DNA from: Escherichia coli
GTDB taxonomy: Bacteria > Pseudomonadota > Gammaproteobacteria > Enterobacterales > Enterobacteriaceae
Length of the DNA: 64,000 bases
Strand: one strand, 5' to 3'
NCBI RefSeq assembly: GCF_002854065.1
Contig: NZ_CP024147.1
Part shown: positions 17,780 to 42,390 of the stretch, one piece after another
How the letters are laid out: each line of letters starts with the position of its first letter
Numbering within the stretch: position 1 is the stretch's first letter
Made by a program: the position numbers and the translations under genes
The notes under the pieces: model-generated
Told to the model about the DNA's origin: nothing
What the model saw: the letters and a program-made list of their open reading frames with translations, nothing else
The model's database searches: none

Positions 17780-17795
17780 TGGCACGCAATCTGCA
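17780..17795 (+). promoter_or_regulatory. Sigma54 promoter of norVW (TGGCAC-N5-TGCA)
   Basis: tGGcacgcaatcTGCa about 45 bp upstream of the norV start. Confidence 0.85.
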
Positions 17796-23472: not shown

Positions 23473-23581
23473 CAAATTCTCCAGCTATGACAGTTAATGC
23501 GCCGATACATTCACAAATTATGCCAGTTTTTAATTAACTGTTATTTAAGGAAATTAATTTCTGTAATGCAGGAAAAAAAGA

Positions 23582-23620
23582 TGTCATCGACACTAGTGAC
23601 GATGACATGTGATGACAATG
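23582..23620. promoter_or_regulatory. Putative FhlA-type UAS upstream of hydN (TGTCATCGACA-like repeats)
   Basis: atgtcatcgacactagtgacgatgacatgtgatgaca resembles the TGTCG/CGACA motifs at the hyc/hyp UAS. Confidence 0.4.
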
Positions 23621-27870: not shown

Positions 27871-27896
27871 ATCTGTGGATTGGCATCAGTCAAAAA

Positions 27897-28314
27897 TCAA
27901 AGAAACCATTCAGGCTTAACGCCAAATCGGGCTGAAAGTGCCTTAATGTGGGATATCGTCAGGGATCGTTGTCCAGACAAGATCTGGCTGACCAGGGATT
28001 TAGAACCGATTTCGTTCTTCAAATCCGCATAGTCAGATTATGTTGATCAATCAGCGTACGAAGTAACGCTACGCCAACCGGCATTGCCGCAACGGCTTTG
28101 TCGAACTCTGCAAACTTTTCGTTGTTGTTTTCATATTCTGCAATGCGGCTCGCCAGAAAGTCGATAAGTGGATTGGTGTCATCTTCTTCAATCAATATTC
28201 GACCAGTTCCAGTGCTTCACGATAATCATCTTCTGAGTCACTGCCTCCCAGAAAGGGGACTGCATTGACCAGTTCTCTTGTTGCTTTAACAGCGCGTGCA
28301 GCATTAGCAGTCAT
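27897..28314 (-). pseudogene. HigA-family (HTH_XRE) antitoxin-like gene disrupted by two 1-bp deletions
   Basis: Three consecutive frames encode MTANAARAVKATRELVNAVPFLGGSDSEDDYREALELVEY / IEEDDTNPLIDFLASRIAEYENNNEKFAEFDKAVAAMPVGVALLRTLIDQHNLTM / DLKNEIGSKSLVSQILSGQRSLTISHIKALSARFGVKPEWFL, together a ~139-aa HigA-like protein. Confidence 0.7.
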
Positions 28315-28549
28315 TCTTTGTTCTCTCTGTAGTATCGTATCAGACGCCCACTTTTCTAAAATGCCAGGTTTGCTCGGCATCATAAGGCATGGTCAGGAGA
28401 GGTTTCAGCGCCCGCTTTTGCGCATATTCGCTGTCACTCATTGGCAGATATTCGGTAAAGCTGGTGGCCTGTGCAGGCAGCACTAAGCTCAATAAAAAAG
28501 CGCACATCCCTGTTCTGATGTTCAATTCCCTGAATTCCCTAATGAAGAA

Positions 28550-33388: not shown

Positions 33389-35215
33389 TCAGGCTCCTCG
33401 TGAAACAATAATCACCACCAGTACCGCCAGTTCAACCAGCGCCATCCGGCGGAACAGCAACGCACTCCCCTCGCACTGCCAGCCCGGCACCAGCGACACC
33501 GGATTCAGCCATTTGCGCAGTTTCAGCACCGGCGCAAACGCCTGTTTCACCGGCATGGCAAAACCGTGAGCGGTAATCACCATTGATTTTTCGTGGTCGT
33601 AACCGCACACCCAGGCCGCACCGCGGGAACGCGATGGCAAACGATCGCCTTTGCAAATCGCCATAATGATGAATGGCAGCAGCGGGCAGGCAATCAGCAG
33701 CAACGTGATCATCGGTTGAGAAACGGTGGTGTTAGCAGGCTCCAGCGGCAGAGGTACAGCAGCAGACAGCATCGGCAGCAGCCACGGCGCAGCAACACCG
33801 CCAATTACGCAGCAAATCGCCAGTGCCACTACGCTTACGCTCATCAGGAGCGGCGCACAGGTGGCGTTTTCGGCTTCTTTGGTACGCGGCGCGCCGAGGA
33901 ACGTGACGCCATAGACTTTCGCCATACACATAACCGCCAGCGCACCGGTAATTGCCAGCCCCACAGCGAGCAGCGGCCCCAGCAGACGTGCAACAAACGC
34001 GCCACTATTGCTCAGTTTGAAAAAGGATTGATAGATAACCCATTCCCCGGCAAACCCGTTCAGCGGCGGCAGCGCAGCCATTGCCATCAACCCGACTAAC
34101 ATGGCGATGGAGATAACCGGCATTTTCTTGCCAATACCACCGAGTTTTTCGATATCGCGATGACCGGTACGGAACCAGACGCTCCCCGCCCCGAGGAACA
34201 GTACGCTTTTGAACAGGCTATGGTTAAGCAGATGGTACAGACCACCGACCAGGCCAAGAGCAATCAGCGCCGGTTGTTCGAGCGCGATACCCGTTACGCC
34301 AGCGCCCAGCCCCAGCAGGATAATGCCGATATTTTCCAGGGTGTGGTAAGCCAGTAGACGCTGGATGTTATGCTCCATCAGCGCATACAGACCACCGACG
34401 AACGCGGTGATCATACCGAGCACCAGCAGCGCGATCCCCCACCACAGCGGTGCATTACCACCCAGCAGCGACAGGGTTAAAATGCCCAGCAGGCCAATTT
34501 TCATGACTACCGTAGAAAACAACGCGGCAGCTGGCGCAGAGGCGTTCGCATGTGCCTGCGGCACCCAGCCGTGCAGCGGAATAATCCCGGCCAGCAGGCC
34601 AAAGCCAATCACACCGAGCAGCCAGATATCGGAACCGAGCGGCAGCTGTTGCATACGCATATCCAGCAGGCGCAGATCCAGCGTGCCGTAACGCTGCCAC
34701 AGCAGCCAGCAAGCAATCGCCAGCAGCAGAGTGCCAAGACGCCCCAGCGCAAACCACAGTTTGCCCTCTTTGCTGTTGTTGGTGAGGAACACCGCACACA
34801 AGGCCATGACTTCAGCCATTACCACGAACATGCCGAGGTTGCTGGCGATGACGGCGCAGACGGCGGCAGCCATCAACATATTGATCTGCAAGCCGTTGCA
34901 CTTCACCTGCGCGTGGCGATGCCAGTCAATGTTGTAGAGGCTGACAAACAGACCGCACAGACCGAGCGTAATCAGCCAAATCGCGTTAAGCGGAGAGATT
35001 TGCACATCGTAGCTTACCAGCGACAGCGCACCGCTCACGCCAACCGCGCCAGTCAGTACTGTGAAGCCCGCTGCTGCCGTATACAGACTACCAACCGCGC
35101 CGCCAATTCCGGCTATCCAGCCGCTTAGCGCCTTTTGAAAAGAAAAGAGAAATGCCAGAACAGCGGCGGCGACAAACCACGCCACGCCGCTATTGATCAG
35201 GGAAATTGCGCTCAT
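33389..35215 (-). CDS. hycC: Formate hydrogenlyase membrane subunit (NuoL-like)
   Basis: 608-aa polytopic membrane ORF. Confidence 0.93.
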   Translation of the reverse strand: MSAISLINSGVAWFVAAAVLAFLFSFQKALSGWIAGIGGAVGSLYTAAAGFTVLTGAVGVSGALSLVSYDVQISPLNAIWLITLGLCGLFVSLYNIDWHRHAQVKCNGLQINMLMAAAVCAVIASNLGMFVVMAEVMALCAVFLTNNSKEGKLWFALGRLGTLLLAIACWLLWQRYGTLDLRLLDMRMQQLPLGSDIWLLGVIGFGLLAGIIPLHGWVPQAHANASAPAAALFSTVVMKIGLLGILTLSLLGGNAPLWWGIALLVLGMITAFVGGLYALMEHNIQRLLAYHTLENIGIILLGLGAGVTGIALEQPALIALGLVGGLYHLLNHSLFKSVLFLGAGSVWFRTGHRDIEKLGGIGKKMPVISIAMLVGLMAMAALPPLNGFAGEWVIYQSFFKLSNSGAFVARLLGPLLAVGLAITGALAVMCMAKVYGVTFLGAPRTKEAENATCAPLLMSVSVVALAICCVIGGVAAPWLLPMLSAAVPLPLEPANTTVSQPMITLLLIACPLLPFIIMAICKGDRLPSRSRGAAWVCGYDHEKSMVITAHGFAMPVKQAFAPVLKLRKWLNPVSLVPGWQCEGSALLFRRMALVELAVLVVIIVSRGA

Positions 35216-35823
35216 TTAGCCTCTCCACTTTGAGCCTGCTGAAACAAGGTGAGATCGCCAAAGTCCGTGTTAAAGGTCAGCTCACGCTTACGTTTGCTGA
35301 CGCGGGCGATATCGGTGTTATCCACCAGATGCAGGGCTTTAGTCGGGCACATCCGCACGCAGGCCGGACCTTGTTCATCAAAGCTACAAAGGTCACATTT
35401 GACGGCGATCGCGCGAATACCTGGCACCCAGTCAAGCAATGTGCTGACACGCGCCGGAGCAGGCGGTGCCGGTGGCGCTTTCGGGGTATTGGCGTTTGCC
35501 GGAATATCCAGCGGACGGCTGCCGGAAAATTCGATTGCGCCAAACGGGCAGGCGATGCCGCACAGTTTGCAGCTTACGCACAGACTTTCATTCAACTGCA
35601 CGGCCCCATCAACGCGGGTGATGGCGTTAACCGGGCAGACCACCGCGCAGGGTGCATCTTCACAGTGGTGACAGAGCTGCGGCGCAGATTCTTTTTCATT
35701 GAGCATCACTCTCAGGCGCGGCATTGATTGCAGGCCGTGCTGGCGATGCGTCTCTGAACAGGCGGCCTCACAAGTGTGGCAACCGATACAGAGCGTGGAG
35801 TCAGCAATTACAAAACGATTCAC
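35212..35823 (-). CDS. hycB: Formate hydrogenlyase 4Fe-4S ferredoxin subunit
   Basis: 203-aa ORF with four CxxCxxCxxxCP motifs. Confidence 0.93.
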   Translation of the reverse strand: MNRFVIADSTLCIGCHTCEAACSETHRQHGLQSMPRLRVMLNEKESAPQLCHHCEDAPCAVVCPVNAITRVDGAVQLNESLCVSCKLCGIACPFGAIEFSGSRPLDIPANANTPKAPPAPPAPARVSTLLDWVPGIRAIAVKCDLCSFDEQGPACVRMCPTKALHLVDNTDIARVSKRKRELTFNTDFGDLTLFQQAQSGEAK

Positions 35824-35842
35824 CAGGCATTCCTCAGGTGAT

Positions 35843-35900
35843 TGTCATTTTTGACGAAAACATGCCGATGAAATGTCATTTTCGACACTCATCGACACGC
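35843..35900. promoter_or_regulatory. Putative FhlA-binding repeats in the hycA-hycB spacer
   Basis: ttgtcatttttgacgaaaacatgccgatgaaatgtcattttcgacactcatcgacacg contains repeated TGTCA/CGACA half-sites. Confidence 0.5.
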
Positions 35901-35947
35901 CCATCCCCAAACAGGCGTAACGCCTGCAAAACGGGCAAAGCCTCAGC

Positions 35948-36409
35948 TCATGCTGCCGGGCTTTGTCCCTTTACCAGTTGGCTTAAATTCACCGGCACAT
36001 TGTTTTCAATGGCGGTGTATAAGCTGTCGTAAACGCCAGCGATTTTTTCGAGATAGTGTTCCAGAACCTGTTCGCGATCGCGGATGTTGACCTTGCCATC
36101 AATCATGCCGTCAATGCTCAGTTGCGCCTGCGCAATCCGCTGTTTGTCTTCGCCATCTTTTGTTTCGACGTAATACTCGATGGTGTGGCTGTTAAAGCCA
36201 TCCGCCAGGGTGACGTAAATACGAAAATGTTCAAAAAGGACGAAACAGAGTTCTTTGTCCGGCGCGCAGCTCATGGCGTGATGCAGGCGCGCTTTCGATA
36301 ACGTGATCCCCTGAACCAGCGAATTGCAGTAGATGTGCCACTGGTCCTGTAGGCGACGATGCCGCTGTGCGATGTAATCGGCTTTCTCGCTTATTTCCCA
36401 AATAGTCAT
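35948..36409 (-). CDS. hycA: Formate hydrogenlyase regulatory protein HycA
   Basis: 153-aa ORF MTIWEISEKADYIAQRHRRLQDQ. Confidence 0.93.
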   Translation of the reverse strand: MTIWEISEKADYIAQRHRRLQDQWHIYCNSLVQGITLSKARLHHAMSCAPDKELCFVLFEHFRIYVTLADGFNSHTIEYYVETKDGEDKQRIAQAQLSIDGMIDGKVNIRDREQVLEHYLEKIAGVYDSLYTAIENNVPVNLSQLVKGQSPAA

Positions 36410-36445
36410 TGTCAGGTTACCCGTTTAACAGAGATGCCAGCTTTA

Positions 36446-36461
36446 AGCATTTTTTGTGCCA
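36446..36461 (-). promoter_or_regulatory. Sigma54 promoter of the hyc operon (TGGCAC-N6-TGCT)
   Basis: Minus-strand TGGCACaaaaaaTGCT with the GG-N10-GC spacing, about 40 bp upstream of hycA. Confidence 0.75.
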
Positions 36462-36506
36462 ACTTTTAATTTATTGTTATTAAAGCGATTTTTAAGATTT
36501 TGGTGA

Positions 36507-36550
36507 ATTTCGTCGCCGTGTCGACGTGTCATTTCGACATCATCGACATT
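36507..36550. promoter_or_regulatory. FhlA upstream activating sequence shared by the divergent hyc and hyp promoters
   Basis: cgtgtcgacgtgtcatttcgacatcatcgacatt, tandem TGTCG-N-CGACA palindromes midway between the two sigma54 promoters. Confidence 0.8.
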
Positions 36551-36574
36551 ATTCACTGCAGGGATAATCAACAC

Positions 36575-36590
36575 TGGCACAATTATTGCT
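36575..36590 (+). promoter_or_regulatory. Sigma54 promoter of the hyp operon (TGGCAC-N5-TTGCT)
   Basis: cTGGCACaattaTTGCTt about 30 bp upstream of hypA. Confidence 0.8.
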
Positions 36591-36620
36591 TGTAGCTGGC
36601 AATAGTTAATGGGAGGCGAT

Positions 36621-36971
36621 ATGCACGAAATAACCCTCTGCCAACGGGCACTGGAATTGATCGAACAGCAGGCCGCAAAACACGGCGCAAAACGCGTAAC
36701 TGGGGTCTGGCTCAAAATTGGCGCATTTTCTTGTGTCGAAACCAGCTCTCTTGCCTTTTGTTTTGATCTGGTTTGCCGCGGCAGCGTGGCGGAAGGTTGT
36801 AAACTGCACCTCGAAGAACAAGAGGCCGAATGCTGGTGTGAAACATGCCAACAGTATGTGACGCTACTGACCCAGCGCGTCCGCCGCTGTCCACAGTGTC
36901 ATGGTGACATGCTACAGATTGTGGCAGACGACGGTTTACAGATTCGGCGGATAGAAATAGACCAGGAGTGA
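36621..36971 (+). CDS. hypA: Hydrogenase nickel insertion protein HypA
   Basis: ORF MHEITLCQRALELIEQQAAKHGAKRV with C-terminal CxxC...CxxC zinc site; start set at MHEITL. Confidence 0.93.
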   Translation: MHEITLCQRALELIEQQAAKHGAKRVTGVWLKIGAFSCVETSSLAFCFDLVCRGSVAEGCKLHLEEQEAECWCETCQQYVTLLTQRVRRCPQCHGDMLQIVADDGLQIRRIEIDQE

Positions 36972-36974
36972 GCG

Positions 36975-37847
36975 ATGTGTACAACATGCGGTTGCGGTGA
37001 AGGCAACCTGTATATCGAGGGTGATGAACATAACCCTCATTCCGCGTTTCGTAGCGCGCCATTTGCCCCGGCGGCACGCCCGAAGATGAAAATCACCGGC
37101 ATTAAAGCGCCTGAATTTATCCCCAGCCAGACTGAAGAAGGCGACCTGCATTACGGTCATGGCGAAGCGGGCACTCACGCACCGGGCATGAGCCAGCGCC
37201 GGATGCTGGAAGTCGAAATTGACGTGCTGGACAAAAACAACCGTCTGGCTGAACGCAACCGCGCGCGCTTTGCTGCCCGCAAGCAACTGGTGCTCAACCT
37301 GGTTTCCAGCCCTGGTTCCGGTAAAACCACCCTGCTGACGGAAACCTTAATGCGCCTGAAAGACAGTGTTCCGTGCGCGGTTATTGAAGGTGACCAGCAA
37401 ACCGTGAACGATGCCGCACGCATTCGCGCTACCGGCACACCAGCGATTCAGGTGAATACCGGTAAAGGCTGCCATCTTGACGCACAGATGATTGCTGACG
37501 CCGCACCGCGCCTGCCACTGGACGATAACGGTATTCTGTTTATCGAAAACGTTGGCAACCTCGTATGCCCGGCGAGCTTCGATCTCGGTGAAAAACACAA
37601 AGTGGCGGTGCTTTCCGTTACCGAAGGTGAAGACAAACCGCTGAAATATCCGCATATGTTTGCCGCCGCCTCGCTGATGCTGCTCAACAAAGTTGACCTG
37701 TTGCCGTATCTCAACTTTGACGTTGAGAAGTGCATCGCCTGCGCCCGCGAAGTCAATCCAGAAATTGAAATCATCCTTATTTCCGCCACCAGCGGCGAAG
37801 GGATGGACCAGTGGCTGAACTGGCTGGAGACACAGCGATGTGCATAG
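36975..37847 (+). CDS. hypB: Hydrogenase nickel incorporation GTPase HypB
   Basis: 290-aa ORF with N-terminal [10 protein letters not shown] metal site and P-loop GSGKTT. Confidence 0.95.
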
Positions 37848-40311: not shown

Positions 40312-42390
40312 ATGTCATATACACCGATGAGTGATCTCGGACAGCAAGGGTTGTTCGACATCACTCGGACACTATTGCAGCAGCCCGATCTGGCCTCGCT
40401 GTGTGAGGCTCTTTCGCAACTGGTAAAGCGTTCTGCGCTCGCCGACAACGCGGCTATTGTGTTGTGGCAAGCGCAGACTCAACGTGCGTCTTATTACGCA
40501 TCGCGTGAAAAAGACACCCCCATTAAATATGAAGACGAAACTGTTCTGGCACACGGTCCGGTACGCAGCATTTTGTCGCGCCCTGATACGCTGCATTGCA
40601 GTTACGAAGAATTTTGTGAAACCTGGCCGCAGCTGGCCGCAGGTGGGCTATACCCAAAATTTGCTCACTATTGCCTGATGCCACTGGCGGCGGAAGGGCA
40701 TATTTTTGGTGGCTGTGAATTTATTCGTTATGACGATCGCCCCTGGAGCGAAAAAGAGTTCAATCGTCTGCAAACATTTACGCAGATCGTTTCTGTCGTC
40801 ACCGAACAAATCCAGAGTCGCGTCGTTAACAATGTCGACTATGAGTTGTTATGCCGGGAACGCGATAACTTCCGCATCCTGGTCGCCATCACCAACGCGG
40901 TGCTTTCCCGCCTGGATATGGACGAACTGGTCAGCGAAGTCGCCAAAGAAATCCATTACTATTTCGATATTGACGATATCAGTATCGTCTTACGCAGCCA
41001 CCGTAAAAACAAACTCAACATCTACTCCACTCACTATCTTGATAAACAGCATCCCGCCCACGAACAGAGCGAAGTCGATGAAGCCGGAACCCTCACCGAA
41101 CGCGTGTTCAAAAGTAAAGAGATGCTGCTGATTAATCTCCACGAGCGGGATGATTTAGCCCCCTATGAACGCATGTTGTTCGATACCTGGGGCAACCAGA
41201 TTCAAACCTTGTGCCTGTTACCGCTGATGTCTGGCGACACCATGCTGGGCGTGCTGAAACTGGCGCAATGTGAAGAGAAAGTGTTTACCACTACCAATCT
41301 GAATTTACTGCGCCAGATTGCCGAACGTGTGGCAATCGCTGTCGATAACGCCCTCGCCTATCAGGAAATCCATCGTCTGAAAGAACGGCTGGTTGATGAA
41401 AACCTCGCCCTGACCGAGCAGCTCAACAATGTTGATAGTGAATTTGGCGAGATTATTGGCCGCAGCGAAGCCATGTACAGCGTGCTTAAACAAGTTGAAA
41501 TGGTGGCGCAAAGTGACAGTACCGTGCTGATCCTCGGTGAAACTGGCACGGGTAAAGAGCTGATTGCCCGTGCTATCCATAATCTCAGTGGGCGTAATAA
41601 TCGCCGCATGGTCAAAATGAACTGCGCGGCGATGCCTGCCGGATTGCTGGAGAGCGATCTGTTTGGTCATGAACGTGGGGCTTTTACTGGTGCCAGCGTC
41701 CAGCGTATCGGTCGTTTTGAACTGGCGGATAAAAGCTCCCTGTTCCTCGACGAAGTGGGCGATATGCCACTGGAGTTACAGCCGAAGTTGCTGCGTGTAT
41801 TGCAGGAACAGGAGTTTGAACGCCTCGGCAGCAACAAAATCATTCAGACGGACGTGCGTCTAATCGCCGCGACTAACCGCGATCTGAAAAAAATGGTCGC
41901 CGACCGAGAGTTCCGTAGCGATCTCTATTACCGCCTGAACGTATTTCCGATCCACCTGCCGCCACTACGCGAGCGTCCGGAAGATATTCCGCTGCTGGCG
42001 AAAGCCTTTACCTTCAAAATTGCCCGTCGTCTGGGGCGCAATATCGACAGCATTCCTGCCGAGACGCTGCGCACCTTGAGCAACATGGAGTGGCCGGGTA
42101 ACGTACGCGAACTGGAAAACGTCATTGAGCGCGCGGTATTGCTAACACGCGGCAACGTGCTGCAGCTGTCATTGCCAGATATTGCTTTACCGGAGCCTGA
42201 AACGCCGCCTGCCGCAACGGTTGTCGCTCAGGAGGGCGAAGATGAATATCAGTTGATTGTTCGCGTGCTGAAAGAAACTAACGGCGTGGTTGCCGGGCCT
42301 AAAGGCGCTGCGCAACGTCTGGGGCTGAAACGCACGACCCTGCTGTCACGGATGAAGCGACTGGGAATTGATAAATCGGCATTGATTTAA
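40312..42390 (+). CDS. fhlA: Formate hydrogenlyase transcriptional activator FhlA (sigma54 enhancer-binding protein)
   Basis: ORF with GAF domains, AAA+ GETGTGKE and GAFTGA, C-terminal HTH; start set at MSYTPMSDLGQQGLF. Confidence 0.95.
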   Translation: MSYTPMSDLGQQGLFDITRTLLQQPDLASLCEALSQLVKRSALADNAAIVLWQAQTQRASYYASREKDTPIKYEDETVLAHGPVRSILSRPDTLHCSYEEFCETWPQLAAGGLYPKFAHYCLMPLAAEGHIFGGCEFIRYDDRPWSEKEFNRLQTFTQIVSVVTEQIQSRVVNNVDYELLCRERDNFRILVAITNAVLSRLDMDELVSEVAKEIHYYFDIDDISIVLRSHRKNKLNIYSTHYLDKQHPAHEQSEVDEAGTLTERVFKSKEMLLINLHERDDLAPYERMLFDTWGNQIQTLCLLPLMSGDTMLGVLKLAQCEEKVFTTTNLNLLRQIAERVAIAVDNALAYQEIHRLKERLVDENLALTEQLNNVDSEFGEIIGRSEAMYSVLKQVEMVAQSDSTVLILGETGTGKELIARAIHNLSGRNNRRMVKMNCAAMPAGLLESDLFGHERGAFTGASVQRIGRFELADKSSLFLDEVGDMPLELQPKLLRVLQEQEFERLGSNKIIQTDVRLIAATNRDLKKMVADREFRSDLYYRLNVFPIHLPPLRERPEDIPLLAKAFTFKIARRLGRNIDSIPAETLRTLSNMEWPGNVRELENVIERAVLLTRGNVLQLSLPDIALPEPETPPAATVVAQEGEDEYQLIVRVLKETNGVVAGPKGAAQRLGLKRTTLLSRMKRLGIDKSALI

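Follow-up and report, generated by a model that had tools for sequence, protein, structure and literature searches.

The hycA-hypA intergenic region of Escherichia coli: outward-facing sigma-54 promoters and FhlA-type repeat arrays

The control region between the hyc and hyp operons of E. coli is already known and was first described in 1990, and a later study attributes the "divergent NtrA-dependent promoters" to Lutz et al. 1990 (as cited in PMC3844500). A sigma-54 ChIP-seq survey of E. coli lists sites OS26 (hydN, CTGGCATGATTTGTGAA in K-12), OS27 (hycA, TTGGCACAAAAAATGCT) and OS28 (hypA, CTGGCACAATTATTGCT), all three of which are flagged as previously confirmed promoters (PMC4591121). In Salmonella, ChIP-chip detected sigma-54 occupancy at the hydN, hyc and hyp promoters, a microarray with a promiscuous activator recorded sigma-54-dependent hydN-hypF, hycABCDEFGHI and hypABCDE transcripts, and FhlA is named as the activator of the hydN, hyc and hyp transcripts (PMC3844500). 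The consensus for FhlA is given as CATTTCGTACGAAATG (PMC4987338), and a 14-nt FhlA matrix has been built from 13 characterised sites (PMC7658346). Binding of FhlA to its sites and induction by formate are covered by secondary citations in PMC11291172 and PMC4987338.

The DNA analysed here is a 64,000-nt stretch of an E. coli genome, referred to as the window. We are highly confident that its positions 36410-36620 represent the hycA-hypA intergenic control region of the formate (FhlA) regulon. A 1.1-kb query matched 5,425 of the 5,426 complete E. coli genomes (5,426 records) at an identity of at least 95%, and the matched segment carries the annotated genes hycB, hycA and hypA. Over the 803 nt that separate the starts of hycB and hypA, the sequence is 99% identical to that of K-12 MG1655, and over this comparison the promoters, the IHF-like site, the central array and the spacer array described below are base-for-base the same. 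Most of the few differences between the two strains fall within 18 nt at 36486-36503 (AAGCGATTTTTAAGATTTTGGTG here, AAGAGATTTTTAAGCTAAAGATG in K-12 MG1655), a non-conserved linker that leads from the IHF-like site to the central array, and one further polymorphism lies at about 36557.

The RefSeq annotation of an identical strain gives the gene order norW, hypF, hydN, ascG, ascFB, hycI through hycA on the minus strand, and then hypABCDE and fhlA on the plus strand. The first hyc gene, hycA (35948-36409, minus strand), is annotated as "formate hydrogenlyase regulator HycA", and hypA (36621-36971, plus strand; RefSeq, open reading frame) is the first gene of the hypABCDE-fhlA operon. Downstream of hypE, fhlA (40312-42390, plus strand) encodes the cognate formate-responsive sigma-54 activator, annotated as "formate hydrogenlyase transcriptional activator"; its RefSeq symbol is "flhA", a mix-up with the flagellar export gene. 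In the ascB-hycI interval (about 27896-28507), RefSeq places a frameshifted helix-turn-helix pseudogene and a small hypothetical open reading frame. Characterisation of the hyc-hyp region goes back to 1990, so that its confirmation here brings no new biology; it does validate a reading that an earlier note had made from sequence only, and it anchors the window to a well-known locus.

For the comparative part of the analysis, a scan with HycA yielded 80 loci from Escherichia, Salmonella, Citrobacter, Enterobacter, Klebsiella, Raoultella, Kluyvera, Kosakonia, Lelliottia, Pseudocitrobacter and others, across which the hypA / hycA-hycB arrangement is conserved. We analysed the 79 recoverable intergenic regions and 81 hycA-hycB spacers, which come from at least 15 enterobacterial genera and are not phylogenetically independent.

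Two outward-pointing sigma-54 motifs, which the earlier note had placed at 36446-36461 on the minus strand and at 36575-36590 on the plus strand, lie exactly there, as seen both in the sequence and in ChIP-seq sites OS27 and OS28 (PMC4591121), to which the window is identical. The hyc operon promoter consists of the -24/-12 element TGGCACAAAAAATGCT (read from 36461 to 36446), in which the GG-N10-GC spacing is intact and 15 of 16 positions agree with the consensus. The hyp operon promoter, TGGCACAATTATTGCT, is a perfect match (16 of 16 positions), and the RpoN matrix scores of the two are 14.8 for hyc and 18.5 for hyp. By the -12 rule, transcription of hyc is predicted to start at about 36435 and that of hyp at about 36601, which is 26 nt ahead of the hycA ATG and 20 nt ahead of the hypA ATG, respectively; these predicted starts are about 166 bp apart and face outwards. 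The distances given for hydN, hycA and hypA in the ChIP-seq table (27, 26 and 20 nt; PMC4591121) agree with predicted starts at about 23499, 36435 and 36601. Both motifs were present in all 79 orthologous intergenic regions, that of hyc ending 34-37 nt from the start codon and that of hyp lying 28-34 nt from the ATG in 78 of them, with a distance of 42 nt in the remaining one. Scanning 35700-37000 for sigma-70 promoters and terminators gave nothing above chance. The motifs, their positions, their conservation and the non-random clustering of the repeats described below are thus established here, and the occupancy of the promoters by sigma-54 is taken from published ChIP-seq.

Counting sigma-54 motifs was less informative. 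The hyp site at 36575-36590 is the only perfect TGGCAC-N5-TTGCW in the 64-kb window, and relaxed matches were no commoner there than expected by chance, with five found against 4.1 expected at up to one mismatch and 38 found against 47 expected at two mismatches. We rejected such counts as evidence in themselves, and the case for the two promoters therefore rests on position, orientation and conservation. Three other matches may be recorded. At 17780-17795 (plus strand), the one-mismatch motif TGGCACGCAATCTGCA has the same sequence as the norV ChIP-seq site OS25 (PMC4591121), and norW is annotated just downstream of it. Inside hycC, TGGCGCGTTTGTTGCA at 33989-34004 (minus strand) corresponds to the weak intragenic sigma-54 ChIP-seq site IS31 of K-12 (GTGGCGCGTTTGTTGCC; PMC4591121). 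Inside hycA, TGGCACATCTACTGCA at 36325-36340 (minus strand) reaches an RpoN matrix score of 14.9, as high as that of the hyc promoter 120 nt upstream, to which it is too near for ChIP-seq to resolve. We rejected the hycA-internal match as a promoter: in 19 of 80 orthologues a synonymous TGT codon removes its -12 GC, and it is thus probably a by-product of the W-H-I-Y-C codons. In the same 64 kb, FNR-type palindromes (TTGATNNNNATCAA, at most two mismatches) numbered 51 against 29.1 expected, and 0 of 100 shuffles reached 51. An FNR-dependent internal promoter has been reported in hypA; no FNR box with at most two mismatches was found inside that gene.

Between the two promoters lies a central array of TGTC/GACA-type repeats (36505-36549), which the FhlA matrix and its conservation mark as a putative FhlA-type upstream activating sequence. 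It contains TTTCGTCG (36508-36515), TGTCGAC (36519-36525), a core TGTCATTTCGACA (36527-36539), a tandem TCGACATCA / TCGACATTA (36534-36551) and, as the hit of the FhlA matrix, CGACATCATCGACA (36535-36548). In the alignment of orthologous regions the core TGTCATTTCGWCA is kept in 72 of 79, and a TCGACAT unit follows it. When the pentamers TGTCA, TGTCG, TGACA and CGACA were counted in 60-nt windows, only the central block, the hycA-hycB spacer (35843-35898) and the sequence upstream of hydN (23581-23617) were found to hold at least four per 60 nt in the whole 64 kb. Such clusters arose 0.41 times on average in 100 first-order Markov simulations, against the three observed. The earlier note had delimited the central block at 36507-36550, within a few bases of the array found here, and its further claim of like repeats in the spacer and upstream of hydN proved correct as well.

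The FhlA matrix was scored at 127,974 window positions. The spacer site 35874-35887 ranked first (score 16.8) and the central site 36535-36548 second; the 13 sites behind the matrix almost certainly include those of hyc and hyp, so that ranks 1 and 2 are partly circular. A second spacer site, 35843-35856, took ranks 6 and 13. No convincing match to the matrix was found at the hydN array, where the best score was 7.4 (rank 191), and support for hydN therefore comes from clustering, conservation and the literature instead. As a check on the earlier reading, the motif scan thus speaks for the spacer and central arrays, with the circularity just mentioned, and not for the hydN array.

We also considered whether the repeats are chance clusters or sites of another regulator, such as ModE or a nitrate-response regulator, that have nothing to do with FhlA. 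TGTC/GACA words are indeed common (243 pentamer matches in 64 kb), but the three clusters, against 0.41 expected, are all non-coding and either adjoin FhlA-dependent sigma-54 promoters or lie within their reach. One paper mentions ModE as a secondary hyc activator (PMC2636881), and the FhlA matrix gives the hydN array a low score, yet the repeats fit the published FhlA consensus and matrix, the clusters are strongly conserved across genera, and the gene for the cognate activator, fhlA, belongs to the same gene cluster. An origin of the repeats unrelated to FhlA appears to us extremely unlikely.

The spacer array is made up of two sub-sites. Sub-site B (35843-35859) comprises TGTCATTTTTGAC (35843-35855) and the overlapping 16-mer GTCATTTTTGACGAAA (35844-35859; TTTCGTCAAAAATGAC on the minus strand). 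Sub-site A (35874-35898) reads TGTCATTTTCGACAC-TCA-TCGACAC and includes TGTCATTTTCGAC (35874-35886); TCGACAC occurs twice in the spacer, 10 nt apart (35882-35888 and 35892-35898), and the layout of sub-site A is that of the central core plus tandem unit. The distance between the sub-sites is 31 nt in E. coli, compared with about 19 nt in Enterobacter. Across orthologues the spacer varies in length from 73 to 152 nt, with the block TGTCAnTTTCGACAC-N3-TCGACAC retained throughout. The 16-mer, which nearly copies the upstream core of fdhF (CGTCAAAACTGAC), is unchanged in 77 of the 81 spacers, which represent at least 15 genera, and in 65 of them it keeps a fixed distance of 23 nt to the start codon of hycB. 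It is more invariant than the neighbouring FhlA-type units.

This stricter conservation of the 16-mer, together with its location inside the hyc transcript and the stable hairpin seen after the hycA stop codon in the Escherichia, Salmonella and Citrobacter group, could be taken to mean that the element acts mainly at the RNA level, for instance in translational control of hycB or in transcript processing, rather than as a DNA enhancer. The spacer showed no conserved RNA structure, however: its consensus fold reached only -6 kcal/mol, the covariation term was positive, there were 0 compensatory pairs, and Rfam gave no match within 35000-37500. The element is, moreover, close to the fdhF upstream core and to the central array, and it ranks 6th and 13th with the FhlA matrix. 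A mainly RNA-level role thus seems improbable, and we rejected it for want of covariation and of an Rfam match. The hairpin itself (35899-35948, minus strand) has a predicted energy of -23.8 kcal/mol and a z-score of -2.15. At the same place, Salmonella, Citrobacter and Intestinirhabdus have unrelated sequences that also contain inverted repeats, and in the Enterobacter, Klebsiella and Kluyvera group the segment is absent. The hairpin might be a partial terminator or a stabiliser of a hycA-only transcript.

The third array (23581-23617) is the putative upstream activating sequence of hydN-hypF. It consists of a 28-nt palindrome (23581-23608), whose halves ATGTCATCGACACT and AGTGACGATGACAT are 93% complementary, and of a third unit, GATGACA (23611-23617). 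The hydN promoter, TGGCATAATTTGTGAA (23510-23525, minus strand), with a predicted start at about 23499, matches the sigma-54 consensus in part: the -24 GG is kept and the -12 element is non-canonical, with GA for GC. It differs by one base from ChIP-seq site OS26 and is conserved in 8 of 8 sequences. Relative to the predicted start the array spans -82 to -118 and is centred at about -96. Palindrome, IHF-like element and promoter are conserved in Escherichia, Salmonella, Citrobacter and Intestinirhabdus, where the sequence upstream of the array differs. That hydN-hypF would belong to the FhlA regulon, as the earlier note had suggested from the repeats, is already accepted: PMC3844500, citing Maier et al. 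1996, lists hydN-hypF as dependent on FhlA and sigma-54, and a 2025 review places it in the formate regulon (PMC11841067). The conserved and clustered palindrome agrees with this membership.

An IHF-like site (36467-36479, minus strand; TAACAATAAATTA), with one mismatch to the consensus WATCAANNNNTTR, lies just upstream of the hyc -24 element, on the side facing the central site. An AT-rich block with 0-1 mismatch to this consensus, which is a weak one in AT-rich DNA, was found in 56 of 79 orthologues, and in 53 of those 56 it sits at a fixed 5-6 nt upstream of the hyc TGGCA. In 1994, Hopper et al. reportedly found that IHF acts at hyc. A similar AT-rich element, TAACAGTTAATTA (23531-23543, minus strand), precedes the hydN -24 element by 5 nt, which repeats the arrangement at hyc; with two mismatches it is a weak call. 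An extended module, AATAACAnTnAATTAAAAnnTGGCA, is seen at both hydN (23510-23543, minus strand) and hyc (36446-36479, minus strand), with about 20 of 26 bases identical by eye. This module, common to hydN and hyc, points to a common design of a putative IHF site plus promoter.

When the hycA-hypA regions were aligned to window positions 36407-36623, conservation was concentrated in the promoters, the AT-rich block next to the hyc -24 element, the core with its TCGACAT unit and the ribosome-binding sites, while the rest of the sequence varied. In the 79 regions, promoter-to-promoter spacing falls into classes of 91, 101-102 and 111-115 nt, and the distance from the core to hyc is 51, 62-65 or 73-74 nt, in steps of about 11 nt. 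From the core to the GG of the hyp -24 element the distance is 41-43 nt in 57 of 72 regions and 53-54 nt in the rest; across the 79 regions, the interval of about 30 nt that separates the central array from the hyp -24 element has a variable sequence but a nearly constant length. The positions of the repeat units are also more sharply defined relative to the hyp promoter than to the hyc promoter. The length steps of about 11 bp may stem from face-of-helix constraints on both sides; gain or loss of repeat units of about 10-11 bp, or shared ancestry, could explain them equally well. Taken together, the comparative geometry suggests a stricter arrangement than is known to have been described.

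These distances bear on which array serves which promoter. From the predicted hyc start, the central array extends from -72 to -115 and is centred at about -98, with the IHF-like site in between; this is classical enhancer geometry, an FhlA enhancer being expected about 80-150 bp upstream of its sigma-54 promoter or else able to work from afar. From the predicted hyp start the same array extends from -51 to -94, without a bend site in between, and the spacer array extends from -703 to -758. Among the papers searchable in full text, no statement was found on which array serves hyp. Schlensog et al. in 1994 and Leonhartsberger et al. in 2000 and 2002 are said to have assigned the central site to hyc and to have made the spacer site the enhancer of hyp. 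The earlier note had described the intergenic region as a shared FhlA control region. The repeat arrays, the promoters, the FhlA motifs and the conservation all fit an FhlA control region; it is the word "shared" that is doubtful, with the central array at only -51 to -94 from hyp. Against a strict separation of the two arrays stands the tightly conserved spacing between the central array and the hyp promoter, which would be unexpected if this array were irrelevant to hyp.

The central array might instead be a bidirectional enhancer, on which one FhlA oligomer activates both hyc and hyp, with the spacer array auxiliary or redundant. In favour of this, the near-constant core-to-hyp-GG length (41-43 nt in 57 of 72 regions, 53-54 nt in the rest) is maintained despite sequence variation, although a constant length could also reflect the shortness of the interval and the relatedness of the genomes. 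The sharper repeat offsets from hyp than from hyc fit as well, and the spacing classes are about one helical turn apart, so that the relative helical face of both promoters would be preserved. The array is, however, centred at about -60 to -68 from the hyp start, which is unusually close for sigma-54 looping, and no IHF-like bend site lies in between; the spacer array is conserved even more strongly and needs a target. Deletion and footprint studies are said to assign hyp activation to the spacer array, which also counts against the bidirectional enhancer. We regard dual action of the central array as possible but doubtful. More tentative still, and in our estimate rather unlikely, is the combined proposal that a single FhlA assembly is helically phased to both promoters and acts on both, while the spacer 16-mer is under an additional, undescribed constraint.

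The classical reading is the best supported; in it, the binding of FhlA and of IHF, the exact starts and the pairing of arrays with promoters are inferred or taken from the literature. Sigma-54 RNA polymerase would sit on each promoter as a closed complex, and formate-bound FhlA would bind the arrays of TTTCGWCA/TGTC-type units and open the promoter using ATP. At hyc, bending at the IHF-like site that abuts the -24 element would carry the activator towards the polymerase, and IHF bending probably contributes at hydN too. The spacer array would be a distal enhancer of hyp, acting from about 700-760 bp upstream, and the third, palindromic array at about -96 would serve hydN-hypF through an IHF-like-plus-promoter module of the kind seen at hyc. 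Because hyc begins with hycA, which encodes the anti-activator, and hyp runs into fhlA, the region subjects FhlA to both negative and positive feedback. The region governs how E. coli switches on hydrogen production from formate in fermentation, and one feedback circuit couples the structural hyc genes, the maturation genes of hyp and hydN-hypF, the activator gene fhlA and the anti-activator gene hycA. The comparative footprint shows which bases and spacings are constrained, and could help to engineer FhlA-responsive promoters for hydrogen production.

Among described systems, the hycA-hypA region of K-12 is the same locus, at 99% over 803 nt with few polymorphisms. The upstream activating sequence of fdhF in K-12, the archetypal FhlA enhancer, resembles the arrays described here in its TTTCGTCA units and its GTCA-N4/5-TGAC palindrome, and its CGTCAAAACTGAC can be set against CGTCAAAAATGAC of the spacer. 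The fdhF array likewise lies upstream of a sigma-54 promoter (GTGGCATAAAAGATGCA), but it faces one promoter and not a divergent pair, and no obvious IHF-like module abuts the -24 element there. Within the same window, hydN-hypF is like hyc in having a sigma-54 promoter, an IHF-like element 5 nt upstream of -24 and an array near -96; unlike hyc, it has a near-perfect palindrome of 26-28 nt, a closer spacing of half-sites, a poor FhlA matrix score and GA at -12. Outside the formate regulon, the arrangement recalls that of other divergent sigma-54 promoter pairs such as zraP and zraSR, where the activator binds between the promoters. There, too, two outward sigma-54 promoters are about 160 bp apart (OS38 and OS39; PMC4591121), but the activator is ZraR and the signal is zinc, and hyc/hyp has an additional distal array inside the neighbouring operon.
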